A stretch of 63,626 bases of DNA, the filler included, from Dugesia japonica (lineage: Eukaryota): NCBI GenBank assembly GCA_001938525.1. It is 6 parts of 6 records of this genome, joined end to end, with 100 filler letters (N's around TTAATTAATTAA, not from the genome) between each part and the next. Parts side by side here need not be neighbours in the genome. Positions count along the whole stretch, not along the records: positions 22,071 to 31,045 come from MQRL01604207.1; 5 more parts are not named here. One strand, 5' to 3'. The notes beneath the pieces were generated by a model, which was not told where the DNA came from, did no database searches, and worked only from the letters and a program-made list of their open reading frames with translations. Positions within the stretch are counted from its first letter, which is position 1. Every line of letters begins with the position of its first letter. The position numbers and the translations under genes were made by a program. Of the stretch, positions 1-45,277 are shown one piece after another.

Positions 1-54
1 CGGCCAGAAAATAAAAATAAAACAAAGACACCGATGTCAGGTGCTCCCCTAAAA

Positions 55-200
55 ATAACTGCCAATCATGGCACCAAAATCCATAGAAAAATTATGAAAA
101 TCAGTGCTAGCACCAATAGAATCAGAGAAGAGCTGTTCTAAAAATACTTGGCAAATCTAAGCCTAGTAGGGGTGTCCAGAAAATCATATATAAGGAACCC
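55..200 (+). promoter_or_regulatory. CCAAT array plus TATA promoter of copy A
   Basis: CCAAT at 62 and 113, variant GCAAAT at 151, TATATAAG at 187; same spacing as copies C and E. Confidence 0.7.
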
Positions 201-814
201 CGGTTTTAGACAAAAAATCTTAACAATTATAACAACTCTAACAGTCCAATCTACGTGTGATTCACGAAAATCTATAAGCACTTCAGTAGTTCTGTTAACA
301 GAGAAGAAAATATTAAGTTATCAATTATCGCGCAGCTGCTGTCCAAATAGTTGAATAAATCGAAACAAGTGGGATAATAATTAAACGAAGCAAATAAATT
401 GATCAACTTTTCAGAGTATAAAAAATTTACAAGGGTTCGAGTTAAGAAACTATCTACTCCCAACTAAAACGATTGCTCTCGTAGTACCCGTTGCTGGAAC
501 AGTGCACAGATCGAGTAAATTTATTCAATATTCTGTGGATACCTATAACAGTAATTTTTCATTTTATGTTTATATTATGATTCCCATAATTGTCNNNNNN
601 NNNNNNNNNNNNNNNNNTATTAATCGTATTTTACAAGAATTTTTTTTTGTGTCTCTAAATACTTACCATAAAATTAATTTCAATAAACTGAGTGTATGTT
701 ATTTACAATTGTCAGTACACTACTTATAAAACTTTAAACCATCTGAAAATAAAACATATATATTGCCAACCCCAGTATTAAATCAGTAATAACGTAACTA
801 ACTAGTTGATATTT

Positions 815-1165
815 CATAAAACTCTTATTAAATGAATTCCATAATTTGAATTTATAGTATATATTATAAGAAAGTCTAAAGCAACTAAATCGCTGATAAT
901 TAATAAAACTCTTATTAACTAATTTCTATAACTGGAATTTATACTATATATGATAAGAAAGTCTAACGTAAATGACTGGTTAGTAATTAATAAAACTCTT
1001 ATTAAATAATTTCGATAAGTTAAATTTATATTACATATTACAGGAAAGTCTAGCGTAAGTAAATAGCTGATAATTAGTAAAACCCTTACTAAATAAGGTC
1101 GATAATTTGAATTTACAGTATTATTACAAAAAAAAATATCTAACCGACTAAATGAAGAAGTTAAC
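815..1165. repeat. 87-bp tandem repeat, about 4 diverged units
   Basis: AAAAC(T/C)CTTA(T/C)TAA recurs at about 818, 905, 992 and 1079. Confidence 0.85.
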
Positions 1166-2402
1166 AAACATTAATTCTAGTACAAAATTTATTTTTTAGA
1201 AAAACATCTAGTAAACCACTGATAACTCCATGAGTAATGAATAATAATTTCCCGAAGCAGTGGTTTACCACAATGAGGTTAGTATAATAGTCATCTAGTG
1301 ACACCGACAAATAAATTAACCAGTAATCACTATTAGCATACCTGAATATCACTTCATAAGGAAACAAATCAACAATTCCCGCTAAAATGTACAAACGAAA
1401 CAAAATTCCAAGAGAAAAATGGTAGAATTATTTATTTCATTAGATCCTGAATAACATACTACTAAAAGATAATAATAAATGACATATACAAATTTCAATA
1501 TACCCGAATGTAGATTTCTAAGGAAAGCCTCAATAAACCACATTAAGTATGCAAGAACTAAAATCTATCAAACAAATCATCGGAATCATTTATTATAAAA
1601 CATTTACGAATAATATATTTGAAACAGAAATATATTTTAATGATTGACCTATGCAAATCACGTTATGACTACATGTAAATTCCCGTTGTGGTGAGAAAAC
1701 TGTCTCGACACNNAAACTCGGAATTTCTCTCAAATAAATAATTTTTGTTGACATGGCTACGGCCTTGAGGGTAACCAAGGGCAACACAGGTTTGGCGAAA
1801 ATTTCAATTAATAAAAACGAGATACATTGGGACCAACAATAAGTATACAAACTAATCAGTAGGGTTGAATTTATTTAAAATTAATAACATCTTTTGCAAG
1901 ATCATTAGGTGCAATCCACAATGCGGCTGGAGTCTACCGGCTATTAAAAGCTTAAAATTCATNNNNNNNNNNNNNNNNNNNNNNNNNNNNNNNNNNNNNN
2001 NNNNNNNNNNNNNNNNNNNNNNNNNNNNNNNNNNNNNNNNNNNNNNNNNNNNNNNNNNNNNNNNNNNNNNNNNNNNNNNNNNNNNNNNNNNNNNNNNNNN
2101 NNNNNNNNNNNNNNNNNNNNNNNNNNNNNNNNNNNNNNNNNNNNNNNNNNNNNNTGGTATTAATAATAATAATGATATTAAAGGATACTAATAGTGATAA
2201 TGATGATGATAGTGATAATAAACGATTCTAATAATAATAATAATGATAATAAATAACGCCGATAATAACCATGGTAATAATCAATAGTGATAATACTAAT
2301 ATTAATAATAATAATCAAGTAGAATGATTCCCCTGGCCCACTCCTCTTCTAAATAATTAGATATTTTACTTGCGAATTTGCAGTAACAATTTTATTTCAG
2401 CA

Positions 2403-2585
2403 ATGACGGCCCGGCTAAGAAATATGCTGAGATGGATCAGGAAACAACGCCAGGTGGCCAGGAATAAACAATTAATCGCACATCTCCTAACATCCGGGGC
2501 CGTGGAACACCACGACGAGACGGACCTACAATGTTTCGTCGAGATGTTTCCCCTAGTACGTAAAATAGACTTAGATGGAGAATAA
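2403..2585 (+). CDS. Cassette ORF1, 60-aa protein of unknown function
   Basis: ATG 2 nt after acceptor TTTCAG|; homologs in copies B, C and D share EHxDET(D/G)LxC. Confidence 0.75.
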   Translation: MTARLRNMLRWIRKQRQVARNKQLIAHLLTSGAVEHHDETDLQCFVEMFPLVRKIDLDGE

Positions 2586-2781
2586 CCCCTTTTCTAGACC
2601 GAATCTCCAGCCACATGAGGGTCACCTACAGCTCCAATCAGTTACCCTACCATCTGGCAATTGTGTTTTAATGTTTTCTTGAAATAAAGCAATATAGGTG
2701 TTATTTACATGTTTCTTATTGCCACTTACTTCTGTTGTTAAAAGATCTATGTTAAGCAGTTATATTTCATTTTTTTAGATA

Positions 2782-3200
2782 ATGAACTACAAATGGGAGG
2801 TTCTGTGGGATCGAGTTAACCAACGCACCGTTTTCAAGCGTTACGTTAACCCTTATGACCGCAATGCAGACCTCATGGATGACTATTCAAATCTACCCCC
2901 GAGGACGTAGAACGCGAAAAAGAATGGGCAGCCGCGGAACGCCGAGCTTACCGCGAGTGGGATGGTCCCGACAGAAGTCGCGAAGTGTTGCACCGCGTCA
3001 CGTCGGTCGACCCAATAACGAATCAGGTTACTGTCCATTGGCAAGAGGGACCCTCCTTGATCCCATGTCCACCTGGACACATGTCACGGGGTACCGCTTT
3101 CCTAATCGACACAGAAAATCATGTGTAGTAACTCAAGAAACAAACAAGTGGTGGTTCGACTAAACATGCTGAACCGCTGACATGATCATCCCTCCACATT
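2782..3200 (+). pseudogene. Cassette ORF2 (NPxxRxA / WxGP family), frameshifted
   Basis: MNYKWEVLWDRVNQRTVFKRYVNPYDRNAD...; frameshift in the C-run near 2900, then EREKEWAAAERRAYREWDGPDRSRE; aligns with copy D 24989-25370; 3' end approximate. Confidence 0.75.
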
Positions 3201-3385
3201 CATGAACTTAGATACCAGTGCGTTCTCTTGATATAATTGAGTTTATCGTATTTAATAAAAAAGAAAAAACTTGTCTTCTATGAGTTGTTCTGATTGCTTC
3301 CGGAATTTGTTAATAGTATATCTCCAACGAACTACCTTTTAAGTAAAAGAAAATTTATCATATCTTCGTTGTAGATTTTGTTCTC

Positions 3386-3802
3386 ATGGATCATATCTGG
3401 ACTGTGACCACTGATGTACGAACCAGATTATCCACTTTCCGGAAATACCGGAATCCCCACAATCGAAATGCAGGGGTGTTGGTAGACAACTCCAATATAT
3501 CCCCCGAGCTAGCCGCTGAATATCGCAGTTGGGACGCAGATAAACGGGAAGCATACTATCAGTGGCGGGGTCCCATGCCAGACCGACCATATTATCCTCC
3601 ATCTCCTCACATTGACGCTGCTTCCCCACTATTGCCACAAATCGAACGAGTGTGGACAGAGAGTCCCACAGTGTTTGGATTTGCCACTACTCAGTTACCC
3701 TCCTACGAGCACCTGTCGTCATTTGTGCAGAATAACTTATGGAGCGTGCGTAACTCCCTTGGTAACGCAAATAACGAGAACGTTTCCAGAGGAAACTTGT
3801 GA
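3386..3802 (+). CDS. Cassette ORF3, intact 138-aa paralog of ORF2
   Basis: Open frame after acceptor TTGTAG| at 3374; shares FRKYRNPHNRNAG, DxSN, WxGP and LWxVR with the other copies. Confidence 0.8.
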   Translation: MDHIWTVTTDVRTRLSTFRKYRNPHNRNAGVLVDNSNISPELAAEYRSWDADKREAYYQWRGPMPDRPYYPPSPHIDAASPLLPQIERVWTESPTVFGFATTQLPSYEHLSSFVQNNLWSVRNSLGNANNENVSRGNL

Positions 3803-3957
3803 TCTCTACCCTGTTATACTTGTAGTTAATGTAAAGTTTCGTGTCTATTAATTGTCTTATTCCCTTATTGTAAATTAAATAGTATGAACAAGACCTTGGC
3901 TGTCCTATTACATAATTATCATGTTCACAAGCCTTAATCATATACTATCTCTTTTAG

Positions 3958-4325
3958 TGCACTCTTCGTTAAATCGTCCGCCGGCCCCGACCAAGAAAGT
4001 GCGGGAAGATAGTGAGGACATAGAGATGTCCTGGAGTTTATATCGCCTGGCCAAACGGCTTTGGGAGGCCGATGTGGCGACCGCAAATGCCAAAGTGAAG
4101 CGATATAAAAACAAATGTGCCAGTGTTTGAGAGGAATTGAGACTTGCACAGGAACAGGAACGAGCATGGAAAGCTCAAGTCGAATCTTTTGCAGAGATGA
4201 TCCGGTCCAGCCATGACCGAGAAAATAAACTGGTTAAGTATATTCTGTTGCTTAAGGAGAAATCTTATCTTGAACCCCTTATGATCGATAAGAGTACACA
4301 AACAAAAAACGTGTCTCGCCCATGA
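3958..4325 (+). pseudogene. Cassette ORF4, coiled-coil protein with NLS-like KKVR and DKSTQT motif; one in-frame stop
   Basis: Starts AG|TG CAC; in-frame TGA at 4128 lies where copy D has Arg; homologs at 10344, 24781 and 5815. Confidence 0.75.
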
Positions 4326-4445
4326 TCCTGTGTTTATGTAAAAATAAATATCACTTTTGGTTATTCGGTCACTTTTGAATTTAAACTTTTGATGATTGTA
4401 GAATTGTTATATCTCTGCATCTTCTTAATGATTTTTCTATTTTAG

Positions 4446-4828
4446 TGCCTAGAATCCAATTTCCTAATAGTTTAAGGCGCTGTCACCGTCTCTTACGCCT
4501 CCTCCTCGTCGAACGACATCTGAAAAGAAAAGCAGATAAGGCTTTGTTGAAACATCTCGATCAACGAGATCGATTAATAAAAAAATTAGATCTAGTGATT
4601 AAAAAGCAATCAGACTTTGCGGCACAGACTAAGGCCTTGGAGGCGGAAAACAAACTTTTACTACAACGAAAGGTTAACTTCTTGAAGCAATATATCGCTG
4701 ATCTGTCGCGCGAACTGGGAAATCCAAATATATCTCAGTGAGATGAGAACGATGATGTAGCGATGTTTAATTTTGTCGTCACTACCCCTGACCAATGGCT
4801 GGATCCAGAAGCCTTGGATTTATTGTAA
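4446..4828 (+). pseudogene. Cassette ORF5, basic coiled-coil protein with acidic/aromatic tail; one in-frame stop
   Basis: Starts AG|TG CCT; TGA at 4739 lies where copy D has Trp; aligns along its length with 23935-24296. Confidence 0.75.
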
Positions 4829-5778
4829 CTATGTTGTTATCAAATAAACATTTCGATGAGAATTATAAAGATTTTTAATTATCACCAAATAACAGTAGGG
4901 AAAATATATAGAACCCGAACCAAAGGTTTATTGGTGAGCNNNNNNNNNNNNNNNNNNNNNNNNNNNNNNNNNNNNNNNNNNNNNNNNNNNNNNNNNNNNN
5001 NNNAAATTCTTGAAAGGGTTCCCCTGAGGACTGTTTTTCCCCAGTCATTTTTGTCCAAACTCAGGTGAACCCCAACATAATAATAAACGATAATTTAAGC
5101 CTTTTTAAGGGGTTGAGGAATCATGCGAATAAAATAGTGCGAATACAATATTATTAATGATACGTTGACGATCCTAAGAGCGATAGTAACGAATGAATAA
5201 GTGTGATCGCTATAATACCGATATAGATGGTAACTGTATTATTATTTAATTTAATGATAAGGAATACATTTTTTAAGGAACAAATATCCATAAAAAACAT
5301 TAAAAAATCAGATGAAATTATTAATAACATAATTACAATGATAACAAATAAAAAAAGATAACCTACTCTTAACTCATAACTGTGTTGGTTCGAAATATAA
5401 ACAGGAATTCTTCTGTAGACAGGAAAGGCTTCAGCTTTCTTCATGGTGATACGTAGAATGACATGAATTTGTAAATATTTTTGAATAGTACGGCTTGATT
5501 TTCTTCTCGTATAATAGAACGAATATTGAGATTGAGATTAAAAGGAATGTATTAAAATTTTTCTATCTTCGTTGTCTTCTTGATTGGTTATTTTCGAAGA
5601 TGATGAATAAAACGACGAATAATTAGTTACTAATTTTACTCGCTTTAAATACTGGTTGAGACAAGTGGCAAGCAGCACAAATTGGGCAATTTTAGGATTT
5701 TGAATTTAATTGTGCTAGTATGAGAATTATCAACTAAACTGGCTTTGATGATGTCTTATTGTCGCAATTTGGGTGAAA

Positions 5779-7089
5779 CTTGGTTGGAGCTGGGGTCGAT
5801 TTAACGAGGAATGCACTAAAAGAAAATATAATAAAAATCATTGCTTTTTATCGACTTGGCAGCCGATTTACCGATATCTACCCAACCCTATTTAAAGTAT
5901 AAAAAACAGAATACAATATTAAAGATAATCCTCTCAATGAATTAATGAGAATATTAAGACTACTTAAACACTTATTTATTAAGGGAAAACATTTAAAATC
6001 ATAAAATTATCAGGATTCCGGAGTAGTATTGTTAAGCGGGGCAGTGTTTTTCGCATCTTCCACCCCGGAAGGCTCCCTAACCTCCCAGAGCATATTAGCT
6101 ATGAAGGCCTGGACTACTGGTGGGAGAGCTGGAGGTTGGCAATGGAATGGAGTAGCGTGGTTACGCTCAGGGCCATTCCACTGACGATAGTTCAGCCGCT
6201 CTCCGAAGCTCTGAATACGAGCTACTGCCGCTTCAACAGGGGAAAGATTGGATCTATCTACTAAGATCTCGGCGTCCCGCTGGTAGGGATTATGATGCCG
6301 TCGAAAAATCATTCGACGCGTTTTCCTATCAATAACTCTCCCATATGGATTCCATCCTAAGATTAAAAGGAAAATATAGTAAAACTCGAATAACCCTTCA
6401 TAAGAAAACAATAAACACTTAAATGAATAGTCAATATGCAACGCTAAATTTTATTCGAAAATCCACTTTATCAACCAAATAAATGTCATTCTTCATCTAG
6501 ATCTACCTTCCCTTCAAAAAGAAACATCTTGGAGAGACAACAGAGGTCAGTCTCGTCCGGATGTTCAACTCTTCCTTTTGTCAGTACGTGAGCCGTCAGT
6601 TGCTTGGACCGACTAATTTGTCGTTGCTTTTTAATCCAACGCAGTGCGTGATACAAATGAAATCATTAATCATAGTCCTTAACCCTTGTTTTATTTCCCA
6701 GAACAAATCGCTGTCGTCTATTAATAAAATGCGGATTATATCCTGAAAAAGCTAATCAATAAGGGGTTTAAATATGTGCATAACAATTTCGTTAGAAGAA
6801 TTAAACGGTTCTAAAATGATTAATCGTAGATATACTATGTGGCCTAATAATAACGAACAATAGGGCTAAAGTTAACGTAATAATGATAACACTAATCATC
6901 ATGGTGCGCGATGACCCAATAATACCATGGGTGTCAGGAATAATAGTGTTAATACCCATGATGGTCATAATCAATCGACTACCACCACAGATAATATTAA
7001 ACCTTCCTGATGCTCTCACTATGTAGAATAAATGGCTCCTCTGAATTTTAGGACTAAAAACAATATGATGTTTGGCATCGTAATTATAC
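5779..7089 (-). mobile_element. Cassette element copy B, internal fragment
   Basis: ORF1 homolog about 6486-6668, ORF2/3 homolog 6010-6355 with frameshifted start, first codons of ORF4 at 5815-5779. Confidence 0.8.
6010..6355 (-). pseudogene. ORF2/3-family homolog in copy B
   Basis: TTAG|G ATG GAA TCC ATA TGG, then frameshift into VIDRKTRRMIFRRHHNPYQRDAEILVDRSNL...WNGPER...LWEVR. Confidence 0.75.
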
Positions 7090-7484
7090 TTTTGGGGCGA
7101 AACACCCAGAGGAACGATAATCCAAGTTAAAAAGGGTCACAAATGACCAGTACCAAATTAAAGAACCAGTGAGGAAGCCATAATGAAAAAACCAGTCAAT
7201 ATTAAATAAGAAATCTAAAAGATCAAGTTCAATGTGATTAATTATGGAAATCACAAAATTAATAAAATTATGAAAGAAAATAAAAATCAAATGAAGAAAT
7301 AAATGCAAGAAAATAATAATTAATTTTAACGGAAAAATTAATTAAATTTGAAGTAAAACCGGTTTTTGGTAAATAATTATGGTCAGGAAAGTCGGAGAGA
7401 GTCCGGTGAAGAAAATTCAAGAAGAGAACAGCAAGTAAGAAAAACTTACCATCTTCCAGAGGGTTGTTATGGGGTCCACAAGAT

Positions 7485-7692
7485 CGGACCAATAGGAGGC
7501 CTAAAAATAAAAATAATACAAAGAAAAAACCATCAAATGGTTCTCTAAAAATAGTTGCCAATTAGAGTTCTAAAACTCTGTAAAAATTTTGGAATCATGG
7601 CACGAAATCCAATAAGATTGAATTAATCCAAATTAAAAATAATTGGCCAATGCCAGACAAGTTGGGGTGCCTCGGAAATCGTATAAAAGGAC
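7485..7692 (+). promoter_or_regulatory. CCAAT x4 plus TATA promoter of copy C
   Basis: CCAAT at 7489, 7558, 7609, 7647; TATAAAA at 7682. Confidence 0.75.
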
Positions 7693-9408
7693 CCCTTGGT
7701 TTTAGCAGAAAAAAACAAAACAAAATTTTTTGCATATTCACATACGCAAAGAACTCCGAAAAACATCCATTACAACTTATCCAAATCCGAGAATCAACAA
7801 GGAAATTAGCTATATTTCGAGATTAATACGCATCGATTGTATCATTCGATATCAGAAACTAAGAGTAAATTAAAATTTCTGTGGGTAATATTTCTTATTT
7901 CAAGAAGAAGGAAAAGAATCTAATACCAGAACCATAATCCGAATTCGCCAACTCGATTATCCACTAGCTACCCGAAACCCGTTGCAGAAAATTCTTGTTC
8001 GATAACTCAAAGTAATGTACTATTTCATTTATAGCAATGTTTTATTATATGAAAAAACCGAATATTACTCAAGATAATAAATATATTTGTGCTCAACTTC
8101 TTAAATTGTTAGCTTATAAATTCATAACAATTAATATTTACTAAATGAAATTTTGAGCCGGAATACTGTCAGTATTTAATCTTTGTTCCGGTGTAGTCAA
8201 TTTATAAAAAGATAGTAAAAATAAGAGTAACTTCGGCTTAAAATCTTTTATAATAAGTAAAAATAAACAAAATAAACCAACTAAATTTTATTTGTTATAA
8301 AAACCTAACCCGTAAAATTTAGGAGTCAAAGTGGAAACAGCTTATTCAGGGACCAGTTTTAAATTATAAATGAACCAGCAATTCAGCAGATCATATCGCT
8401 GCAATATTCGATTTAAATTCCACGGCGTCACAATAATGGAGTTGCTGAATCCAATAAATCCTTTCGTTCAGTTAATTGATGATTAAACGACAATCCATGG
8501 ACAAGGCAGGAGATTTGTGATTCCATTAAAAAATTCCGCTTGCGAGTGAATTGAGTTGAGAAACTCATAATTACCGACAGAATGGATAAATTTCATAAAT
8601 TGCAGAGTTGTAGATAGTAAATAATTACTACCTGAATTCACTTCACGAACCCGTGTGTGTCTGTCATCACATTAGTATAGAAATTGAAAAATATTTTGCT
8701 ATGATAAGGAAGTATGTTATACACCCTATCACATTGATTGATAATTAGGAAACAGCAACTCGTTACACACCTAGCCTGATAAATCCGTTTGAAATATTTT
8801 AACTGTTGTTAAGGGGGTAAAATCACTACGCAACGAGTCGCGCAACAATTCAAAATAAAAACCAATTTCAAACTTCTACGATTATTAACATTCTCATTAA
8901 ATTTTGTGAATATGGCTGCCCTGAATATCTTTATTATTATCACTATTAATTTTATTTTTATTGNNNNNNNNNNNNNNNNNNNNNNNNNNNNNNNNNNNNN
9001 NNNNNNNNNNNNNNNNNNNNNNNNNNNNNNNNNNNNNNNNNNNNNNNNNNNNNNNNNNNNNNNNNNNNNNNNNNNNNNNNNNNNNNNNNNNNNNNNNNNN
9101 NNGATTCTCTTAAGCATTATTACCATTATTATTAACATCACTATTATTCTCATCTTTATTATTATTTTCGTGAATGGTATTATAGCTCGTAGGATTATGA
9201 TTGCCATTATTATTAATTCACAATGGGTATTATCACCTCTAGAGCTACCACCACCCCGTCCAAACTATTCTTAGCATCAGTATTGTCATCCATGCTGTGA
9301 CTTGTATTATTGTCATTATTAATACCACTAATGTTACCTGAAGGTAACGTCGATTTGATTTTTTTGAAAATAAAACATGAATGATGTTCTCATTCCTGTA
9401 GTTAGCTC

Positions 9409-9590
9409 ATGCCTGCCGAATTACATAGGACTCTGCGGAAGATCTTGAAACAGACAAAACATTCGTAATAAACGGTTAATAGCCCACTTGATAACCCATG
9501 GAAGGATAGAGCATCCGGATGAAACAGACTTGTGCTGTTTTTGCCGAGATGTTTTCCATGGACAGGAAGGTAGGTATAGACGAGGAATGA
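9409..9590 (+). pseudogene. ORF1 homolog in copy C, two frameshifts
   Basis: MPAELHRTLRKILKQ / RQNIRNKRLIAHLITHGRIEHPDETDLCCF / AEMFSMDRKVGIDEE. Confidence 0.75.
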
Positions 9591-9728
9591 TTCATTTCTC
9601 CGGTGTCAGAGATTGTCGCGTATTTACGTGTGATCAGCAATAAAATGACTTACTCCCCACTTTTAACTCACTTATTTTATCTTAATATTATAAAATTGAA
9701 ATTTTATTAGCCTTACCTTAATCTAAGG

Positions 9729-10085
9729 ATGGATTCAATATGGATACGCGTCGTCGATAGGAGGACCCGGCGACTAATACTCCGTCGTTATTACAATCCA
9801 CATAACCGGGATGCGGGTATTTTGACAGATCGGTCAAACTTACCACCGGTCGAATCAATCATTGGCCGCATTAACGATTTCAGAGAGCAGCAACGATATC
9901 AAACGTGGACAGGCCCGGACCGCACCGTCGCGACCTCGTTTTCATATCAGTCTACAACCCCTCCCCCAGCTCCGGCGATATAAGCGTTCATCGCTAATCT
10001 CCTTTGGGGAGTCAGGGATCCGAATGGGGTAACGGATATTGAAAATACCGCCCCCAACACTGATAACGTTATTAATCAATCTTGA
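9729..10085 (+). pseudogene. ORF2/3-family homolog in copy C, premature stop at 9981
   Basis: Frame continues past TAA as AFIANLLWGVRDPNG..., matching copy B. Confidence 0.75.
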
Positions 10086-10445
10086 CATTTTGTTGTTTTG
10101 TTGAGTAATAAACAAGTGTTATTATCCTCGGATACTTTCTAACTTTTCGTGTGGTTAAGCGTATTGAGAAGAGGATTTAATATTGATTTTTTTTATTTTT
10201 CTCGTATAATCATAAAGTAATATTTATACCTAGAGGGTTCTTTTCAATGTTCATTTAATAATAGAAGTAATCATACTAATTTTGTGTCTCGTCTTAGACA
10301 ATATCAGACAAAGTGTAATACCTTAACTGTACTTTTATTTCAGTGCATTCGTCCTTAAATAGATCCCATGGGCCAAATAAGAAATTACGAGAGGATAGTG
10401 AGGATATGGAACTCACTTGGGATCTTTATAAACTGGCTAAAAGGC

Positions 10446-10763: not shown

Positions 10764-11930
10764 ATGTCAGCGACTGTTCAATTTAATCTTGGATCTAATC
10801 ACAACACGAGCGATGAATCGACAGATAATCATCCAGTTTGTCATACGAAACCTAGTAAACCTCATTTGAAACGCAGTTTTTCATTGGTACCAGAAAGATT
10901 AGATACCAAAGCCAAAAACAACGTTTGTAACGAACAGCTTTTAACTGGATGTGAAATAGTTTTGGAGATTTTCTCAATTGTTCTAGTTGTTATTCTATTT
11001 CCGTTCTCGTTGATTTTTTCTTTGAAAGTTATAGCTCAATACCAAAGAGCTGTTGTTTTTCGTCTGGGAAAATTGATAGCACGAGGACCGTTGGGACCGG
11101 GATTAATATTTATTCTTCCGTGTTTGGATTCCATGAAACGAATCGATTTGAGAACTTTGACATTTGATGTTCCTACTCAAGAAGTGTTGACGAGAGATTC
11201 TGTAACTGTTGCTGTCGACGCTGTAGTTTATTATCGTATTTTTGATCCGGTTATGTCAGTTGTAAATGTTGAAGATGCAAATCGTTCGACTAGGTTATTA
11301 GCTCAAACAACTTTGAGAAACGTTCTTGGAACGGTGGATCTATATTCGTTGTTGACAGACCGAGAAGATATTGCATCAAGTATGCAAGAAACTTTAGACA
11401 TGGCGACAGATGCTTGGGGCATGAAAGTAGAAAGAGTAGAAGTGAAAGATGTAAGACTTCCAATGCAATTACAAAGAGCTATGGCGGCAGAAGCTGAAGC
11501 AACGAGAGAAGCTAAAGCTAAAGTAATAGCTGCAGAAGGTGAACAGAAATCATCAAAAGCTTTAAGGTTAGCAGCAGAAGAATTATATAAATGCCCAATT
11601 TCCTTACAGCTAAGATATTTGCAAACATTAAATAGTATTTCTGCAGAAAAAAATTCAACAATAATATTTCCATTACCGATTGATATTTTAGCACATTTTC
11701 ATGATAATTCAAATAATCTGGAACCATTTGTGCCACAATCATCACCTGGTAATAGTTCTCAGTCAACAAAATTGATTAATCCGCCATCAGTTCGTGTACA
11801 ATTAGCACAAAAAGCTAGTAATTTACATACAAATCGTAAAGGCTATCATTTAAATCATTTCTCTACATCTCCGTCATCATCAACAATCTCCGGTGGACAT
11901 GACTATACCAGTTCTGATTGTACTGTTTAA
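10764..11930 (+). CDS. Stomatin / band 7 (SPFH) family membrane protein, MEC-2-like, intronless
   Basis: Hydrophobic hairpin with FP, YQRAVVFRLG, GPGLIFILPC, EVLTRDSVTVAVDAVVYYRI, LLAQTTLRNVLG, QLRYLQTL. Confidence 0.95.
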   Translation: MSATVQFNLGSNHNTSDESTDNHPVCHTKPSKPHLKRSFSLVPERLDTKAKNNVCNEQLLTGCEIVLEIFSIVLVVILFPFSLIFSLKVIAQYQRAVVFRLGKLIARGPLGPGLIFILPCLDSMKRIDLRTLTFDVPTQEVLTRDSVTVAVDAVVYYRIFDPVMSVVNVEDANRSTRLLAQTTLRNVLGTVDLYSLLTDREDIASSMQETLDMATDAWGMKVERVEVKDVRLPMQLQRAMAAEAEATREAKAKVIAAEGEQKSSKALRLAAEELYKCPISLQLRYLQTLNSISAEKNSTIIFPLPIDILAHFHDNSNNLEPFVPQSSPGNSSQSTKLINPPSVRVQLAQKASNLHTNRKGYHLNHFSTSPSSSTISGGHDYTSSDCTV

Positions 11931-12459: not shown

Positions 12460-13310
12460 TATAAAGAAGTCCAAATAGAGTTTCTAAAATAAATTTTATG
12501 ACAATATGGCATCATCCCCCTCGTTTTAAATTGCTTTAGCCATTCTATACTTTGAACTATATCTTTACCGTCAGAATTTCTAAATTTAAAGCTATTATTG
12601 TGTATTTTATTTATAAGTTTATAAGGTCCTCCTGTTTATCCTGTTTATCTTTTATGTCTATTTTTACCAGCACATTATCACCAATTTTGAAGTGTCTATA
12701 AATTCTATTATCATTATTGTAATTATTAATCATATTAGCACTATTGATAACTTCTTTTCTTTCGCACCGAACGTCATTCAACAATTTAATATATTCTTAT
12801 GAATCTTCAAAAGATGGAATTTGATGCATAAACATTTCTTTGTTTATCTTTTTGCCAAAAACAATTTCTGCTAGGCTACATTTTAAACTTTTTTGAGTTG
12901 TCGCATTCAAAGCAAATTCTATATGTTGTAGTGCATCTTACCAATTTTTATGTAATTGGTCCTTTAATTTACAAGATAGCTATTCTCTTATTGTACGAAA
13001 TTGTCTTTCTATTTGTCCATTGGCTTGGTGATGATAGGGACTTGAATAAATAATATCAAAATAAAATCTTTCTGACAAATTTCGTAATAAACTTGATTCG
13101 AAACCTTTGCCGCCATCTATATGAATTGTTTTAGGGGTCCTAAATTTTAAAATTCAATCATTTAAACGTAATTTCGTGATGATTTTTTCATCTTGTGATG
13201 TAACAGCCTTTAAATTCGTATATTTACTAAATTGATCAATTATAGCAAAAATGTATTTCTTTCCAGTTAATGTAGTCTAAACAAAATCTGATATATCAAA
13301 ATTAATACAA
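12460..13310 (-). mobile_element. Ty3/gypsy integrase remnant with polypurine tract and start of 3' LTR
   Basis: KKYIFAIIDQFSKY..TPKTIHIDGGKGFES..SSPYHHQANGQIERQFRTI with stops; minus-strand GAGGGGGA then TG near 12513. Confidence 0.85.
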
Positions 13311-16746: not shown

Positions 16747-17960
16747 ATGAAGAGAATAAGTGAAATAGATAGCAAAGATCATCAATGTTCAACTAATAAT
16801 AAAGAAATAAAGGTAAATCCCATTCCAAAGAAAATCAAGATTGAAATACCAGAAATAATAATAGCTTCAATTAACGTAGAACACATTAAAATTGTTGATT
16901 CAATAGAAACATTGGTTTGTAACCTGTATCATAAGCATTCGTCAGTAAAACTAAACAATTTAAAAGTTCTTCATAACAGATTTCAAAATAATTATTTAAA
17001 TGTTACTACTGATGATTGTGAATGGATAGAAAGATTGATGAAAATATTGAAAAGTTTAATTTACAACAGTAATCTGCAAATTCAATTAAGTTCTATTCAA
17101 TTGTTTAGTTCTTTCAGCTTTCAACTTGCCAGTCTTTCTCATAACAAATACAACGATATCATAACAAATGTACTTAGACCAATCGTCAATGATTCCACAG
17201 TTGACATTAATGTTCGATGTGTTGCAATTGAATCGATAACTGCATCAATATTTTTTAACAAATCATCAAATTCAGATACAATTATAAAAATTATGAATTT
17301 GTTCGAAAATATATTTACAGAACCATCAACTAAAACATCATATATAAAACTAGAAATTGCTGCTATTCAACGTTGGAGTTTATTATTTACAATTCTACCT
17401 GATCATTTGTTAGTAGATTTCGGTTCAAGAATTTTATTTTTATCACCATATTTATTAAATAATGTCAGTGTTGATGTAAGAATAAGAGTTGGTAAATGCT
17501 TGGCATTGATTTTTGAAAGAATTAGAATGAAAATCGATTCAAAATTTGTTTGTGATGGTTATGAGAGTTTATTAAAGCAAATGGAATATTTGTCTAGTGA
17601 TGATCGCAAAGCTATAAATAGAAAGGATCGAGCCAAACAAAAACGCGAATTCGGAGAAATTCTTCAATCAATAGAATCTTATTCAAAGAAATTTTCAAAG
17701 GTAGAAAAGTTAAAGTTCAAAGTTAAAGTTTTATCAATTACTAATTGGACCAAAAAAATTCATTATGATTTTATTCAAAAAATTTTACAAGATGGCTTCC
17801 ATTTACAATTACAATTGAATATTTTAATAAGAGAAATATTCCGTTTGGAACCATTACTTGAGAATGATCAAATCATAGTTTTACTTTAAATCTTTCCAAA
17901 ACAACCAAACGAATAGAAAATAAACAAATTGAGAAACAAATCAAAAATAATCTTAGATAA
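16747..17960 (+). CDS. Interferon-related developmental regulator (IFRD) family protein, divergent, intronless, probable frameshift near the C-terminus
   Basis: VRIRVGKCLALIFE, LSSDDRKAINRKDRAKQKREF, ITNWTKKIHYD, LIREIFRL; basic tail SKTTKRIENKQ lies in another frame after the stop at 17889. Confidence 0.75.
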
Positions 17961-19824: not shown

Positions 19825-21244
19825 TTATGTTTTCTAAATAAGTTAAATAAGTTTCTGAGTCTTGATAAAATTCGATTAATTAAAGATCGTGAAAATAATA
19901 TCATTATGGGAAAGGACAATGAACAAGTATTACAAGTTTAAGAAAATTGTTTTAATTTTTTAACATATGGATAATTTTACATCAATTGGTTCANAATTTT
20001 ATGGGGATCATTTTTGGTTTCTCCATTATTTTACACAAAATTTTTCTAAAACCTTTTTCTTGTCAAAATTAGTCAACAAAGGGTCTATTCGATAGAGAAT
20101 TCTTTGCTGAGTAAGGATATGTTAATCTAAAATCGTCAAACTTTAAACTGGTTGAAATAGATAGAAATGTTTATTGAAATATCTTAAATTTTGAAATTTT
20201 CTTTTGGCGTATTTAACAGGTATGGACTCAAATTTAGTGTCATTTAACCCAGAAGTAAAAAAAGACTATATAAAGTTTAATTATCGTCTTGAAAAAAATG
20301 CTTTCTAACGAAGATATACTACTGTCCTCCCAGATTTGGTAACTTTTTTCGAAAATATAAAAGTAACTCGAAATTTATCGAAATTGATACATTTAATAGA
20401 TAATTTTACAATGAGTAAGAATAAAAGTTATAGATAAAAGATATATCAATAAAAATTTTTTAATTTTGCGAGTCTCGCTCGAGGAACATAAAAATAGGCT
20501 AATAATTTACTCGGTGAGGTTGATTTGGTATATTTGTGGATGTTTTTAGGTAAACTTGAGTGATAAATAGTTCTGTAAGGTTGAATTATGTCAATTTAGG
20601 TTAATTTCAGTCATGAATTTACTTGACGAGGTTGCATCAGGTTAGTTTCGGTCTAGAATTTCCTCATTATGGGTAATCTTTGTCAAATTATTTTCTCGTT
20701 GAGGTCGAATCAGATCTTCTTTTTTACTGGTTTTGGTTCTTTTAGTTGATTATTTATTCTTCGTTTGTATTTTCTCTTTTTATTGATTTTCTATCTTCTC
20801 ACTAGTCTTCAGTCATCAATAGTTTTCTCGCTCATCATTGGTCTCAACTTTCGCTTAATAGTCTTCACTCTTCGCAAGTTTTCACTCTTTACTGATTTCA
20901 TTGCTCTTTACAGGTCTTCTCTCGGCTGGTATTTTCTCTCACTTAATGGTTTTCTTCTACTATTTGATAGTTTTCATTCTTCACTAGTGGTAAATGTACG
21001 GTTTGATTATTGTTTTTATACATTGAAATTAGTAGTAAACCAAAGTTTCTATTTATAAATTAATAATTTAATTCGAATAAATGCTAATATTGATTTTAAT
21101 TTTTATAACCAAGTAATTTACAGATACGTTTTTGTATGATTGATGTGCAAGTATCGAATAATTATTACTACTAGTAATAAAATTTCATTTTAATTAAATT
21201 ATTGTGAATATATCTAAGAAAAATGAATAAACTTAAGAAGATTA

Positions 21245-21970
21245 AGAAGAAAGCAAGGCCAAGGTCCCAAATTATAAGCGGAAGGCTACTAGCAAAGAAA
21301 GCTAATGAAGAACAGTAGTCACATGGAATAATATAATAATCATATACGAATAATCAATCATGGACAGAATATGCTAAAATACCGGATAAAAGGCCAAAAG
21401 AAAAAGAAGATGAGTATGAAGACCTTGGATTAACCAAGTTAGCTCACACTAAGGCCAATAATTAAAGGGAATTATCATAATAAAAATAAACGGCAGAAGA
21501 AATTAATATCAGTAAATAATTATTTATTGCAGAAAAATTAATTAATTTAAAAGGAAAATAAATTGAAATTGGTCGAAAATTGGTTTTTGGTGATTACCTC
21601 TACTTTGCATAATCACAGCGTCCTCGGGTAAGAAAATCTGAGAAGAATTGCTGACGAAGCATTAAGAATTGGTTAATAGAAAATGTTACCACCATCCAGA
21701 AGGTTTTCTCAGGGATTTGAAGATTGGGCCAATAAGAGATCTGAAAATAAAAATAAAACATAGGAATGACAATCACATGTCACTCCAAAAATAGACGCCA
21801 ATGGCGTAACAGAAAATAGTCAAAATTTTGTAAAAATCCAAGGCTACACCAATAGAATTTAAGAAATTTGAATTAAAATTAGACAGCCAATAGCAACGAG
21901 TTGCATTTGGTAAGCTATATAAGCCCTTGGAAAATTAGTATAAAAAACAACAATTATTTTCATAAACTAA
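21245..21970 (+). mobile_element. Cassette element copy E (5' and promoter portion, cut by scaffold end)
   Basis: Colinear with the reverse complement of 27400-28110; CCAAT at 21729, 21798, 21849, 21887; TATATAA at 21916. Confidence 0.85.
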
Positions 21971-23090: not shown

Positions 23091-23934
23091 TTAAGTAATT
23101 AGCAAAATAATATTAAAACGAATTATTGAAATAAATAAAATATTGNNNNNNNNNNNNNTAAAAATTCAGTAAAATCAATCTTTAGTAATATTTTCAATAC
23201 ACTGTTATATTTAAATTTATAAAGGATTATCATGCCAATTATTTATTGAGCAAAAAAACAAAACAATAAAAACATACAACGAAAGAATCATATATTGATA
23301 AAGTAAATGAAATACATGTATTCAATTAAATTAGATCAAACATTAAATATAAATATTAAATAAGTTTGAAACCAACTAAAAAACGNAGTGCGATAGTTCA
23401 TAAATGAAAATACTGATTTGATAATTAATTTAAGTAAAGAAAATGAAGGACTTATAACAATTATTTCTTTAAAAATTACAAAGGTAAAATTTTAGAGAAC
23501 ATTGCTCGATTACTGAAAATATTTTAATGTTATAAGTGCTTTAAAGAAGCAATGATAATTGATGGAGAAACAATGGAATTTAGGTAGAGAAGAGCACGTT
23601 TATATAGTAATTAAAAAACTATAAAGTAATATTTATTATGAAAATAAAATTAATGAGTTACTTGCATTTAAAGAAGTAATAATGTTGGGGTTCCACCTGA
23701 GTTGACGGTGAAGAGAAACGCTGGCCGGAGAAAAACGGCCCTCTGGGGATCCCCCTCAAGAATTTAAATCTAACGTCCCTAGGTTAGATATTCAGTACAG
23801 AGGGGTTGACCTCGAACTTTTACTGGAGGTTTCCACTCGTACATATTTAGTTTGGGTTCGTATTCATTTCCCTATTACTGTAGTCATCAAATAAATAAGC
23901 AAAATGTTAATATTAATATGTATTAGTTTAAAAA

Positions 23935-24296
23935 TTACACCTCCTNGAGAGCACCCTGGTCTAACCACTGGGTAGGCTNTTCTGAAATAAAATCAAATAC
24001 AGCGTTGTGATCATTATCATCCCATTGTAACCATGACGCGTTACCTAGTTGGCGGGATAGATCTGCGATGTACTTTTTTAAAAAATCAATCTTATTTTGA
24101 AGGAGTTGTTTCGTTTGTTCCGCGAGATCTCCCTGCTTCTTAACGATGATGCCCAGCCTTTTTATTAGTTTGTTGTGTTGTGCAAGGTGTTTGAGCAAGG
24201 CACGTTCATTCTGGCGTTTGAGATTACGTTCTACTAGAAGTCGCCGAATTAGTCTATGGCAACGCTTTAAACTGTTGGGAAAGATAATTCGTGGCA
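23935..24296 (-). CDS. Cassette ORF5 (copy D)
   Basis: AG|TG CCA CGA; PRIIFPNSLKRCHRLIRRLLVER...KIDFLKKYIADLSRQLGN...QWLD. Confidence 0.8.
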
Positions 24297-24423
24297 CTAA
24301 ACAAGAAACATCATTAAACAATTCATTTCTTTTAAAATAGCTGAAATATTAATTAAGTAAATAATTCGGAAAGAAGAATTTAATTAAAAAAGAAAATCAT
24401 TTACTTAGGAAACCGACAGATAT

Positions 24424-24781
24424 TAAGGTCGTGATGTCTGAATNNNNNNNNNNNNNNNNNNNNNNNNNNNNNNNNNNNNNNNNNNNNNNNNNNNNNNNNN
24501 NNNNNNNNNNNNNNNNNNNNNNNNNNNNNNNNNNNNNNTGACCTCGGTGAAAGACTCTATCTGCGCCTTTCATACTCTCTCCTGGGTGTGTGACGCTTCA
24601 GCCTCCTTCCTAAATGCGGTGCATTTGGTCTTATATCGCTTTACTTTCGCCTCCGCCGAAGCAGTATTGGCCTCCCACCGTCGCTTAGCAAGGTGATAAA
24701 GGTCCCAGGTCATCTCCTGGTCCTCACTAGTCTCACGTACTTTCTTAGTTGGTGCTGAGCGTCTATTTAGTGAAGAATGCA
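24424..24781 (-). pseudogene. Cassette ORF4 (copy D), partly in an N gap
   Basis: AG|TG CAT TCT; HSSLNRRSAPTKKVRETSED...AKVKRYKTKC; stop at 24570; ends ..TSRP* like copy A. Confidence 0.75.
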
Positions 24782-24988
24782 CTGAAAGGAGAGATTATTA
24801 AATTATTAATATATAATGGAAAATCATTTAAAAAGAGTTTCGTATAAAAAATGTAACGGGTGTTATGTAAATTAACGCGTGCGAAAAATCAGACCAAGAA
24901 GTAGTTAAAAACAATCACGAACCGTAATTTTTATTAGCATTAAAATTGACGTCAGGAGCCATCAATGACAATCAAGAGTTATTGTTTT

Positions 24989-25370
24989 CTACAACATCAG
25001 CATTTGCATTACTTCCCATAACGTGTCACCAATGGATGCACTCAATACAGAGAAGGGTGGAAGGTGAGCCGCTGAGACTGGGATCATTGATGGGCCTTCC
25101 CTCCAATCACTGATAGTACTAAACTCCTCGTTTTGAATTGGGGGAAAAGCGGTGACTGTGAAGTAATTCCCGGGACCAATCTGGCCCTGCCCACTCATAA
25201 TAGGCGCGCCGCTCGCCCGCGTCCCATTCTCTTTCATTCTTTGCGTCTTCCTTTGACAAGTTAGTGTAGTCTGTGAACACCCCAGCATTACGGTCAGGGG
25301 GGTTCTTATATCTTTTAAAAATCAACCGGCCGGTACGCCGATCATAAAGGGTTTTCCATTTATAGTCCAT
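24989..25370 (-). pseudogene. Cassette ORF2 (copy D), one frameshift near 25140
   Basis: MDYKWKTLYDRRTGRLIFKRYKNPPDRNAG...WAGPD / WREGPSMIP...LWEV. Confidence 0.78.
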
Positions 25371-25512
25371 CTCACAATCCTGTAATATTATCAAATATAA
25401 AATATCATTAAGAAAAAGAAGTATTTGTTTAATGTGGCCCTTATCAGCATGAACACGTAGAAGCATTTAGTTATTTTTTATTTAAATAAACACGCAAATC
25501 AGATATTTTTAA

Positions 25513-25707
25513 TTAAGCTGGTTCGGNTTCTTTATCTAGATCCACGTCAAACTTTAGCGGGAACAACTCGGCGAAACATTGTAAGCCTGTTTCGTCCGGA
25601 TGTTCGATCTTACCACGAGATAAGATGTGAGCCACTAATTGTCTTAAACGGACTGTTCTACGTTGCCTCCGAATCTGTTTGAGGGTATCTCGTAACTTGG
25701 TTGACAT
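25513..25707 (-). CDS. Cassette ORF1 (copy D)
   Basis: TTTTAG|AAT ATG; EHPDETGLQCFAELFP. Confidence 0.8.
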   Translation of the reverse strand: MSTKLRDTLKQIRRQRRTVRLRQLVAHILSRGKIEHPDETGLQCFAELFPLKFDVDLDKEXEPA

Positions 25708-28700
25708 ATTCTAAAATTAAGATATAAATTAAGGCCTACCTAATTTTAGAATTACTCGGCATGAGATGCAATATCGGCAAAAAGATACTATGCGTGAACA
25801 GCCGGTGCTTGCATTATAATAATTAGTAAGTCGAAATAATAAACAGGTTCTTATATAATTTTAATTGGGAGTGGTATGTCGTGTATGAGCGATCTGTTAG
25901 TCTGATGAGATTAGGAGGATTAATGTTGATACTACTAATGAACCGATCTGGTCATGATTTCATATTGTTAACCGATTCATTATATTATTAAATAAATGGA
26001 AATATCAATAGTAAACGATGATAATGATAAATGAGTAAATACCTATTTGAATTTTAATAAACAATGATCATGTGACCGATCTTTATCTGCGATAAATAAT
26101 AATACTCAAATTTGAGAGAATAAATTCATAATAAGAACATTTTTTTAATAGACATTAACACAATCTCACTAATAGACAGGAGTGACTTGGCTTTAATTTT
26201 TATTTATTGAGATCCAATGACTGGTGGTAATCTCACCGAGTAAAAGTTTCCACAGTTCCGACGAAACTGGCTTATCGAGCATCAAAGTGTCGCTCAAACG
26301 TTAATGAACTAATTATTTTCCCGGGCAACGAAATCGAATTCCTTCATAGATAAACCTTCCAGCTACATAACGTGATTTTCTGTTTTCAAGTATATAATAC
26401 GACTGACAGAGACCGTTGTTAGATTATTTCCCAGTATATGAAGTTATAGAAATGTGCCATAATATCGCGGCTGGATGAATTCCAACGTTATCCACTAAAT
26501 GACCAGAATCAAACCTATTATAAATGATTCTTTTCATTTTTCTACCGGAACATACTCATCGAAAATTTTGCATAAGCTATTGGTTTATGGTATTAATAAA
26601 GTATCGTTATTGTTGTCCTTTTGCAACTCTTATAGCTAAAATGAGTGAGTCAGAGTTTATTCTCGCTTGCGTGTGTGTGTGCAGCCAGGTCACACAATTA
26701 TTAGTCAATTCATTTATCGATTTTGGATTGTCATCGTGTGTTGAGAGTAGAAGTCGTTGTTATCAAATGATGAGATATGTTAGATTATTACTGAACTAGC
26801 TTGTTGGCATATTCTACTAGTTGAGGGTAACAAGTGCTTTATAAGTCGACTGACTTTATCAAAATTTTGTAACAAATATTGGTGGGGATTCCAACAATAA
26901 CTGCTGGTTTTTGTTTAAATTAACGAATGCAGATATTTATATTACAGATAAATAAACTATTAGAGTAATAAGTAGTGACATAAAATTTTATTAATCACAT
27001 AAAAGCCAAGCCTCACCTATCCATAATATGTTAACATAGACAAAATTTGTTATCAATCATATGAATTTTGCAATTACANNNNNNNNNNNNNNNNNNNNNN
27101 NNNNNNNNNNNNNNNNNNNNNNNNNNNNNNNNNNNNNNNNNNNNNNNNNNNNNNNNNNNNNNNNNNNNNNNNNNNNNNNNNNNNNNNTTCAAACGACACT
27201 ATCCTTTTCCTGGTTATCAAAATAATTTTCTTCTGCAGGTGAAAATACACTGATTAATGAAATGCTAGTTAAAATCGTGATCTTAGAATGGTTAATTAAC
27301 GGCTTAGTTTCGCACAGATCTTTCCTTGGAATGTTAATCGTTTTACGTATAGGTATACGAACACAAGTTTATTAATTGACTGATGATTTTATTATATTTT
27401 TGTCTGAATTTTGAAGCCCTTTTATAGCTTTCAAAATGCAACCCGGCATGATCCTCATTGGACAGTTATTTTTATTTCAAATTTCTGTGTTGACTTGAAT
27501 TTCCAAGAATTTTTCATCGTTTTCTGTTACTCTATTTGTGCCTATTTTTGGAGCACCTTGTGACTTTCTTGCCTTTGTTCTATTTTTCTTTTCTGGCCCC
27601 TCATTGGCACATTTTCTCAACCCTTGTAGGGACTTCCCTGATGATGCCACGATTTTCAGGTTGCCAAATACTATTACCCCAGATCTTTTTCTTTCTAGAT
27701 TTTCTTGCTACGGGTTTCTGCGATTATCCTGAGCAGAGATATTCATAGAAAACTGATTTTCGTCTAATTTAAATTTATTTTATTTCAAAATTAATAAATA
27801 TTTTCCCGATAATTAATTATTTTTCAGTAATACTTTTCTTGCCTTTTATTACTAATTTCATAATTTCTTTTGATTATTGTAATTGATGTGGATCAGATTT
27901 GTTGAACCAAGGTATTCATATCCATCTTCTTTGTATTTTGATCTTTTATTCCTTATAATTTAGCCATACTGGTTTTTTAAAATTATTTTTCTTGTGGCTT
28001 TGATGTAATTTTTATAACTCTTCCGTCGTAACTACGTGGTTCTTGATTGACTTTCTTTTCGACCCCCCTTTCTCCATCATTTCTTCGTCTTGGGCCCTTG
28101 GCTTTGTTTTTTCTCTACAGATCGGGTGTTTCACCCCAACAATAATACTAATGAAGAAAATAATAAAAGATGTGAGATAATTACCTAGAACAATAGAAAA
28201 ATNNNNNNNNNNNNNNNNNNNNNNNNNNNNNNNNNNNNNNNNNNNNNNNNNNNNNNNNNNNNNNNNNNNNNNNNNNNNNNNNNNNNNNNNNNNNNNNNNN
28301 NNNNNNNNNNNNNNNNNNNNNNNNNNNNNNNNNNNNNNNNNNNNNNNNNNNNNNNNNNNNNNNNNNNNNNNNNNNNNNNNNNNNNTTTCTGCAATTATAT
28401 AAATTTCATCTGAATATTTAATGTATGTCATTTCTCAAATTGTGTTTTTATTTTATGTATTTTGTGATGAAATTCAATTTTTCACTCCCATTTTCCTATA
28501 GAGATAATATAAAATTTTTTTTTACTGATACTCATTTAATTAACCACTAGACAATTATAATGTGACAAGTTGAGTTAATTCTAAAATAAATAAATATAAA
28601 TTACAAAGTCTAGAAATACAGGTCAAATTGTGTGTTTAGATACTAAAATTCTAAAGTTTGAAAATAAGTAATGGGTTNNNNNNNNNNNNNNNNNNNNNNN

Positions 28701-35129: not shown

Positions 35130-35760
35130 TTGTAATTCCGAAACTTTTGTAAATCGACTTATAATATTAAAACGATCACTTAAATATTCATAACTCTCTG
35201 CTCTTTCCAAACGTTTTGCATCTTTAAAGCGATTCTATTCTTCTAGATCTTATTCATGTCGGAATTTAGATTTCTATTTGATGTGCTATTATAAATCTGT
35301 TACTTTGATATGGTCCTTCATATAACAGCCCGCTTTTTTTGACTGTGTGGTTTTACTTGCACTAATAACCATTGTCCTCTCTTAAATTATCTTTTACCCT
35401 GTTTCTTTCTCACTACATTTCTCTTTTATTGATGTCATAATCATATCCCTCAATGATCGGATCATTCGTTCTATTAAACCGTTGGCCTGGTGTTGATGCG
35501 GGTAACTGAATTCCTGTACAATTACAATTCTTCCTGGCTTCTTTCTTATCACTTGACTTTCAAACCCTTTTCTTCTGTCCGTCAGAATGGTCATTGGTTT
35601 CCAAAAATGGTATGACCATTTGTTTAGAATAACCTCAAAGATAGTTTTTTCATTCATCTTTGCAATACAGTTAACGCAGGATACCCATCAAACACTCAGT
35701 GGTCTATGTAAATGGATGTGTATGGATCAATAAATATATAATGCCCTTCTACATCATTTG
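35130..35760 (-). mobile_element. Ty3/gypsy integrase remnant
   Basis: KPMTILTDRRKGFES..SYPHQHQANGLIERMIRSLRDMI. Confidence 0.8.
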
Positions 35761-44300: not shown

Positions 44301-45277
44301 TTGTGAAAGTTTTTTAAATAAAATTTCGAAAACAGATAATTATTTGCTTAAATTTTCGAAGTATTTTAAATAAAGTTTTAATTTTAAATTTATTAGAAAA
44401 TAATTTCAAATGAAAGCCTGGATTTTAATTTGTTTGTTTAAACCAGTAATGATGTTCTAGTTTTTATTTATATAAATTTATGGAGTTGAATTCTGATGTT
44501 AATGATTCGATGAGTTTTCCAAACTCTCCTAACAAACAGTAAATAAAATTATAAATTAATACTAATGCTCATATTTGATTTCATATTAATATTTTAATGC
44601 CGATACTCATTTACATTATAAAATGCGTCCTGTAAAAGTTTTTTCTTAATCATTAAGACTATAATAATCATAATATTTTCAACTAGAACTAATTATTACA
44701 TATCATAATAATTTGTAAATGAGAAAACTAATTTACTTGCAATCTTACAACAGAATAAATTTTATTTAATGAGACTTAAATAGCTGATCGCAGTTTTTAA
44801 AAATTTTCTTGAACTGTGTAGACAGTTTACTCGCTGTGATTCGCATGACTGCATTCAAATTACAATCCGTCATCATTTATCTGTTAGATTTGTTTATTTT
44901 CAAACAGGAAAAATCATACTCACAAATATAAATGGATCCAAATAATGTCGAATGTTTAGCAGCAAAGTTTTTTAAGCGTGAAGATTGGTAAAGAAGGTAT
45001 TGGTAAAGAATCATGAAACTCGGTTAGAGAAACTGACTCAAACTTCTCTTTCAGATCAAGCAACTCCAACTGTACATCTTCTGTAGCTGATTCGTCTTTT
45101 GCACTATATGACAAACAGTAGATATTAAAAAGTGGTTCTATGGTCCTGAAGTCTTGAAATTTCCTTTCAAATTCTACAATCAAGGAATCTAACTGAACCT
45201 TGTACCTATGAGCCTTTTTACCAGACAAAGTTTTCTGTTTTAGTAAAGGGGAATGTTAAAATCTGTTTTCACCTGAT

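Follow-up and report, generated by a model that had tools for sequence, protein, structure and literature searches.

We analyzed a stretch of 63,626 nucleotides from Dugesia japonica (assembly GCA_001938525.1), hereafter the window, which joins six short scaffolds (9-12 kb) of this AT-rich animal genome. At positions 23683..28141 it holds copy D, a 4,459-bp unit that is a real, abundant, mobile element, inserted by a retroviral-type integrase and carrying small genes that have been under selection. Copy D is probably the solo long terminal repeat (LTR) of a giant Ty3/gypsy element of the Burro type, whose LTR would contain a putatively spliced unit of accessory genes. The solo LTR fits best because the unit combines a short LTR-type inverted repeat and a U3-like region with CCAAT and TATA boxes, and because its terminal repeat is far shorter than the 40-270 bp found in Ginger transposons. 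The boundaries of copy D are as follows.

23683..28141, minus strand, the sense of the open reading frames (ORFs): copy D, the one copy with both ends
23679..23682, plus strand: left 4-bp target duplication, ATAA
28142..28145, plus strand: right 4-bp target duplication, ATAA
28133..28141, minus strand: 5' short inverted repeat, fits TGTTRNR
23683..23691, plus strand: 3' short inverted repeat, matching YNYAACA when read in the sense direction

The left junction reads ATAA followed by TGTTGGGGT (23679-23691) and the right junction reads ACCCCAACA followed by ATAA (28133-28145). The ATAA duplication with TG..CA ends claimed in the first-pass annotation is confirmed; a 4-bp match between random flank words at this site has a probability of 0.010-0.011 (about 1%). 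Beyond the duplications, the next four bases on the left (AGTA) are the reverse complement of those on the right (TACT). Short inverted repeat ends of the form TG..CA and a target duplication of 4-6 bp, here 4 bp, are the properties of Ty3/gypsy (Metaviridae) LTRs. The ends of D match the sequence TGTTRNR..YNYAACA, given as the Metaviridae and retroviral LTR end signal in PMC3601003, as do the 3' end of a second copy (A) and, in degenerate form, the 5' end of a third (C; 16 of 18 bases match). With 98 and 89 sites, such 7-mers occur often in the window, and the matches draw their weight from their position at homology boundaries. At the 3' boundary, the last ~75-90 nt of the element are 84% alike in A and D (74 aligned bases), and both copies end at the same sequence. 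The 5' boundary is confirmed by a 698-nt contig (record 15) of public run X6, which matches D up to exactly 28141 and continues with 535 other letters; these could equally be host flank or the interior of a retrotransposon.

The perfect inverted repeat of D measures only 9 bp, or at most ~20 bp in imperfect form. D contains no long terminal direct repeat and is therefore neither a terminal-repeat retrotransposon in miniature nor a large retrotransposon derivative with two LTRs. Two N gaps interrupt the copy; the earlier figure of about 110 nt describes one of them (109 nt) and not the other (95 nt), and both are indeed too small for a transposase.

Four further copies of the family were located in the window.

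1..5077, plus strand: copy A; promoter (TATA at 187), ORF1 to ORF5 and 3' end; the 5' end lies beyond the window start
5779..7089, minus strand: copy B; ORF1, ORF2 and the first ORF4 codons; neither end; head to head with C
7090..10445, plus strand: copy C; degenerate 5' end, promoter (TATA at 7682), ORF1, ORF2 and ORF4 start; cut by the scaffold end
21245..21970, plus strand: copy E; promoter region alone (TATA at 21916); the terminal ~27 nt are missing; cut by the scaffold end

Over the parts that each copy retains, the order is shared: promoter, spacer, ORF1, ORF2 (and ORF3), ORF4, ORF5. The five copies on three scaffolds and their gene order thus stand as first described, with the correction that A, B, C and E are each incomplete and only D has both ends. 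Copy C was probably inserted into copy B. Because the copies are only 55-73% alike in nucleotide sequence over longer blocks, they belong to different old lineages. Together they occupy 14,929 of the 63,626 bases (23% of the window), and a profile search found no further family copy there save weak scraps at E>0.3. Parts of D are present in 20 public runs from nine studies. In run X6, 1,542 contigs match the tested part of D at 90% identity or more, 237 of them at 99% or more, counts that show many related copies and do not amount to a copy number. One X6 contig skips 972 nt at 24079-25052, with 13 other letters in between, and is likely an internally deleted genomic derivative without ORF4.

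The copies encode four gene families: ORF1 (~60 amino acids), ORF2/3 (~130-140 amino acids, duplicated in A), ORF4 (~120 amino acids) and ORF5 (~125 amino acids). No relationship was detectable between ORF1 and ORF2 or between ORF4 and ORF5. The frames of copies D and A are placed as follows.

25528..25707, minus strand: ORF1 of D; 59 amino acids up to an N, basic, with the motif HxLxxGxxEHxDETxLxC
24989..25370, minus strand: ORF2 of D; frame change near 25140
24423..24781, minus strand: ORF4 of D; starts ag/TG, in-frame stop near 24570, N gap at 24444-24538
23935..24296, minus strand: ORF5 of D; starts ag/TG, with a basic region, a heptad repeat and an acidic-aromatic tail
2403-2585, plus strand: ORF1 of A
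2782-3125, plus strand: ORF2 of A; frame change
3386-3802, plus strand: ORF3 of A; open, 138 amino acids, paralogue of ORF2
3958-4325, plus strand: ORF4 of A; one stop, DKSTQT near the end
4446-4828, plus strand: ORF5 of A; one stop

Selection on these proteins had been proposed from the divergence at third codon positions, and this observation was borne out. In nucleotide-only alignments, the third position is the most divergent in all ten ORF pairs, and the bias is significant in eight of them (p 0.035 to 9e-8) against none of five non-coding controls; the two pairs below significance are ORF1 of D and A and ORF4 of C and D. A ratio of nonsynonymous to synonymous divergence (omega) near 1 is likewise not supported, since 19 of 21 codon-aligned pairs have either saturated synonymous divergence or omega of at most 0.24. 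The two exceptions (omega 0.52 and 0.84) involve a poorly aligning fragment of ORF2 in A. This codon-aligned set holds no ORF4 pairs from B or C, and ORF4 of C is covered by the nucleotide-only alignments. Each of the four ORF-bearing copies now has stops or frame changes, D included (ORF2 and ORF4), as expected from decay after insertion. The third-position bias, together with the saturated synonymous divergence and low omega, thus shows that purifying selection acted on the ORFs while the lineages diverged, the individual copies having then decayed.

Upstream of the genes, copy D has two regions with different patterns of conservation.

27420..28132, minus strand: U3-like promoter region of D; A-rich, non-coding, CCAAT boxes at 27607 and 27461, TATA at 27426
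25720..27419, minus strand: leader/spacer of D; holds one N gap and is not alignable between copies

On the ORF strand, the 5' ~720 bp are rich in A. The copies are 64-68% alike there and differ by indels of every size. Codon periodicity was absent from the four promoter pairs tested (p 0.58-0.92), and the CCAAT and TATA boxes are in register in A, C, D and E, all four of the copies in which this region is present. This conserved non-coding block with its boxes looks like the U3 layout of an LTR. The stretch from TATA to ORF1 (1.7 kb in D) is unalignable between copies; in copy A this spacer also contains four tandem copies of an 87-bp unit (790-1133), which none of the other copies has. Near its 3' end, copy A has a poly(A)-like signal. 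AATAAA words are many and none is in register across copies; no RNA ends were seen, and no border between R and U5 was located.

Every ORF is preceded by a T-rich tract ending in AG that resembles a splice acceptor. At ORF4 and ORF5 this acceptor abuts the frame directly, with ag/TG at six of six starts (ORF4 in four of four copies, ORF5 in two of two); conserved codons follow the TG, and an in-frame ATG is absent for more than 20 codons. The simplest reading of this arrangement is that a shared leader exon ending in A would complete the start codon of both genes; the same starts are equally compatible with a leader that is itself coding and has a phase-1 donor. Trans-splicing of a spliced leader was considered for ORF4 and ORF5 and rejected. 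The flatworm spliced leader ends in AUG, and a leader with this ending would open the wrong frame (frame 0 stops after four codons). A comparable start is described for errantiviruses of the springer subclade, in which the env start codon is split as AU/G and completed by splicing (10.1101/2023.08.03.551782). The springer case, as described in that source, concerns one env gene 3' of pol, whereas here two small genes with a predicted A/UG split lie inside the terminal unit.

The predicted products look like small soluble proteins. No membrane segment was found in any of six proteins tested (largest 19-residue hydropathy at most 0.47), and five of the six are basic. ORF4 has a basic patch resembling a nuclear localization signal and a predicted coiled coil, and in copy A it carries DKSTQT near its end, which fits the LC8/DYNLL motif [D/S]KX[T/V/I]Q[T/V] as given in PMC3078936 (chance ~0.002 per 120 amino acids). 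The composition of ORF5 suggests a protein of the basic-coiled-coil type whose tail is acidic. An AlphaFold model of ORF3 from copy A has low confidence (mean predicted local distance difference test 52.5, predicted TM-score 0.30) and shows three strands and a helix, which this model of the paralogue places at the N-terminus of ORF2. Its best fold match is a designed protein (Z 5.0, root-mean-square deviation 3.3, 54 aligned residues), within the range of common arrangements, and a possible likeness to MBD, AP2 or WW domains found no support among the fold matches. With no membrane segment, the ORF products are predicted to be soluble and not fusogens. To judge from their composition, they may be regulators that act on transcription of the element itself or on silencing by the host.

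Database searches assigned none of these proteins to a described family. Alignments of ORF2/3 and ORF1 had no match in a set of 5.8 billion proteins, the ORF5 profile had none in 1.84 billion representatives, and exact look-up returned none of five proteins. In the 5.8-billion set a control, the IFRD gene of the host (Pfam 2e-30), was likewise without a match at E<=1e-20; coverage of this organism is poor, and the protein-database blanks therefore say nothing on novelty. Pfam gave no match at its curated cut-off for 12 element proteins or six ORF2/3 rows, PHROGs matched none of the 12 proteins, and the ESM Atlas returned none for ORF1. Several weak matches were rejected: a hypothetical archaeal protein that was the best PDB sequence match (E 0.03-0.05), phage-portal matches to ORF3 in the ESM Atlas that fell below the recognition threshold, five metagenome loci with chance matches of 21-25 amino acids in ATG-poor frames of GC-rich (58-60%) DNA, and a viral-contig match to the 3' end of the element that was a chance word within a long unrelated gene. 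Viral contigs yielded no loci for ORF1, and neither a tRNA search nor Rfam gave a match in the window. At the DNA level, the family may already be catalogued under the GLT or Burro names.

Under the solo-LTR reading, a full two-LTR element would have integrated, and recombination between its LTRs would have left one LTR flanked by the duplication. Transcription would start just after the TATA box, and one leader exon would be spliced to a different acceptor before each ORF, supplying the first base of the ORF4 and ORF5 start codons (A/TG). Complex retroviruses use accessory genes to act on their own expression or on host silencing, and the soluble products of the element may act in the same manner.

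Several observations weigh against this reading. R plus U5 would have to span ~3.7 kb and contain several genes, and no LTR of this kind with a multi-gene unit inside it is described in the literature searched, with Repbase Reports, most subscription papers and bioRxiv supplements outside this coverage. The target duplication is testable in one of the five copies (D). No splice donor or first exon candidate was identified in the leader. RNA run X22 yielded 13 partial reads and no spliced joint, with no host-gene control. The complete LC8 motif occurs in copy A only, while D retains IQT at the corresponding position, next to an N gap, and all functional roles are guesses from composition. Finally, a primer-binding site, a polypurine tract, gag-pol and a paired LTR were seen beside none of the four ends observed in the window, although this is as expected for solo LTRs. 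Integrase-type insertion and selected genes are supported, and of the alternatives named in the first-pass annotation, a solo LTR and an integrase-mobilized gene vehicle or virus-like segment, the solo LTR is the best-fitting and likely one. RNA run X21 gave 0 reads, also with no host-gene control, and constitutes no test, and no RNA run is listed among the 20 runs holding part of D.

The most serious competitor, which we nevertheless regard as unlikely, is a stand-alone non-autonomous gene vehicle in which the 4.5-kb unit is the whole element, was at no time part of a provirus with two LTRs and borrows an integrase of gypsy or Ginger type that recognizes its short ends. It would account for the absence of gag-pol beside all five copies, for a self-contained unit that has a promoter, genes and, in A, a poly(A)-like signal close to the 3' end, and for the high abundance seen both in the window (23%) and in the 1,542 X6 contigs at 90% or more; but the 9-12 kb fragmented scaffolds would hide full-length copies anyway, and a U3-like promoter at the extreme 5' end is the layout of an LTR. 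Ginger elements share with D their TGTNR ends and, in Ginger1 and Ginger2, a 4-bp duplication, and non-autonomous, gene-carrying copies are known (PMC2836005, PMC6839031). However, the 9-bp inverted repeat of D compares with 40-270 bp in Ginger1 and 50-180 bp in Ginger2 as reported in PMC2836005, and GingerRoot as described in PMC6839031 has both longer inverted repeats (100-150 bp) and a 6-bp duplication. The AT-rich site ATAA, a single site, resembles neither the CCGG/CCGT target of Ginger1 nor the RTATAY target of Ginger2, and integrase is absent from the element here. A related scenario, which seems to us distinctly improbable, is that the LTR has become an element of its own, the 4.5-kb repeat spreading without the internal region by means of a helper integrase. 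Taken jointly, and with the same low expectation, this would mean a five-gene, alternatively spliced unit with splice-built starts, a dynein-light-chain hook and many deep lineages under selection.

An origin as an integrated segment of an undescribed DNA virus, or as a Polinton-related accessory module, is very unlikely. Several small genes of spliced type behind one promoter may recall viral regulatory units, and LC8-type motifs are common in viral proteins, but the element contains no capsid, polymerase or packaging gene, it has no relative in viral contigs, and the 12 proteins drew no PHROG match. Polintons, moreover, have long inverted repeats and 6-bp duplications. Even less credence attaches to a host gene cluster multiplied by segmental duplication, which the first-pass annotation had listed as a possible refutation. 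Purifying selection on the ORFs would agree with it, but it is largely refuted by the sharp integrase-type ends with target duplication, the unrelated flanks, the nested head-to-head copies B and C and the many genomic copies; each ORF-bearing copy also has at least one broken ORF.

Among described elements, the solo-LTR reading brings copy D closest to the planarian gypsy-like elements. The LTRs of Burro reportedly measure 5 kb each. Burro exceeds 30 kb in total and has, besides accessory ORFs, internal regions that reach 25 kb (PMC6431247, section 7). D resembles Burro/GYPSM1 in its probable host group, very high abundance, accessory ORFs, implied large LTRs and expected TG..CA ends. It differs in that the accessory ORFs and domains described for Burro (MATH, BIR, BCL2, env) are internal, and genes inside the LTR are not described in that section. 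This comparison is made by description; for one BURRO1 primer the window offers no site (6 of 20 bases mismatch at best). In a table of env-bearing elements, none of the six Schmidtea elements has LTR or primer-site coordinates (PMC13524379). The GLT2 probe (PMC8532177, Table S1), inspected by eye, has on its reverse strand a TTTAG/TG acceptor followed by a long open frame, like ORF4 and ORF5 here. For the two primers tested, one from GLT2 and one from GLT, the window likewise offers no site (6 of 20 bases mismatch at best), so that the family here would be a cousin at most at those places; transposons in that study are described as annotated from Repbase consensus sequences. A further likeness is found in the MDG1 group of Drosophila (412, Mdg1, Blood, Stalker), whose sORF1 and sORF2 are small selected ORFs located 3' of the promoter in the LTR, together with an internal poly(A) site (PMC11952523). 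As described there, however, these are two unspliced ORFs lying outside the LTR, between it and gag, and sORF2 is a membrane fusogen, whereas the six proteins tested here all lack a membrane segment.

LTRs are usually regarded as non-coding. Should the solo-LTR reading be true, each solo LTR would keep a complete multi-gene expression unit after recombination, and regulatory proteins could come from many dispersed copies with no full retrotransposon present. Giant planarian elements would also gain accessory genes like those of complex retroviruses, overlooked by domain searches. Planarian gypsy-like elements are reported to be derepressed when PIWI silencing is lost, and the normally silent GLT2 responds in this way when SMEDWI-2, a PIWI protein, is lost (PMC8532177).

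Two stretches adjoin copies of the family. Unassigned sequence of 700 bp (5078-5778) separates the 3' end of A from the break in B; it has no family match and includes a 96-codon frame on the minus strand (5154-5444). Just upstream of E, a strongly A/purine-rich stretch (20480-20980, minus strand) resembles the 5' region of another terminal repeat, and the family profile gave no match to it.

Elsewhere in the window, three host genes were recognized, whose best solved-structure matches are animal: stomatin (10764-11930, plus strand, 388 amino acids in a single open frame), IFRD (16747-17889, plus strand, 380 amino acids in a single open frame) and RPL19 (55231-55860, plus strand). Broken remnants of gypsy-type integrase or reverse transcriptase lie at 12983-13153, 35394-35687 and 62280-63000, with no family end adjoining. 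A decayed non-LTR retrotransposon, which we take to be NeSL/Utopia-like, occupies 45746-49029 (minus strand) with a Ulp1-type protease region, a reverse transcriptase and zf-RVT (Pfam). Fragments at 41336-42147, 44956-45255 and 50342-50692 presumably derive from Tc1/mariner and hAT transposases, which they resemble.

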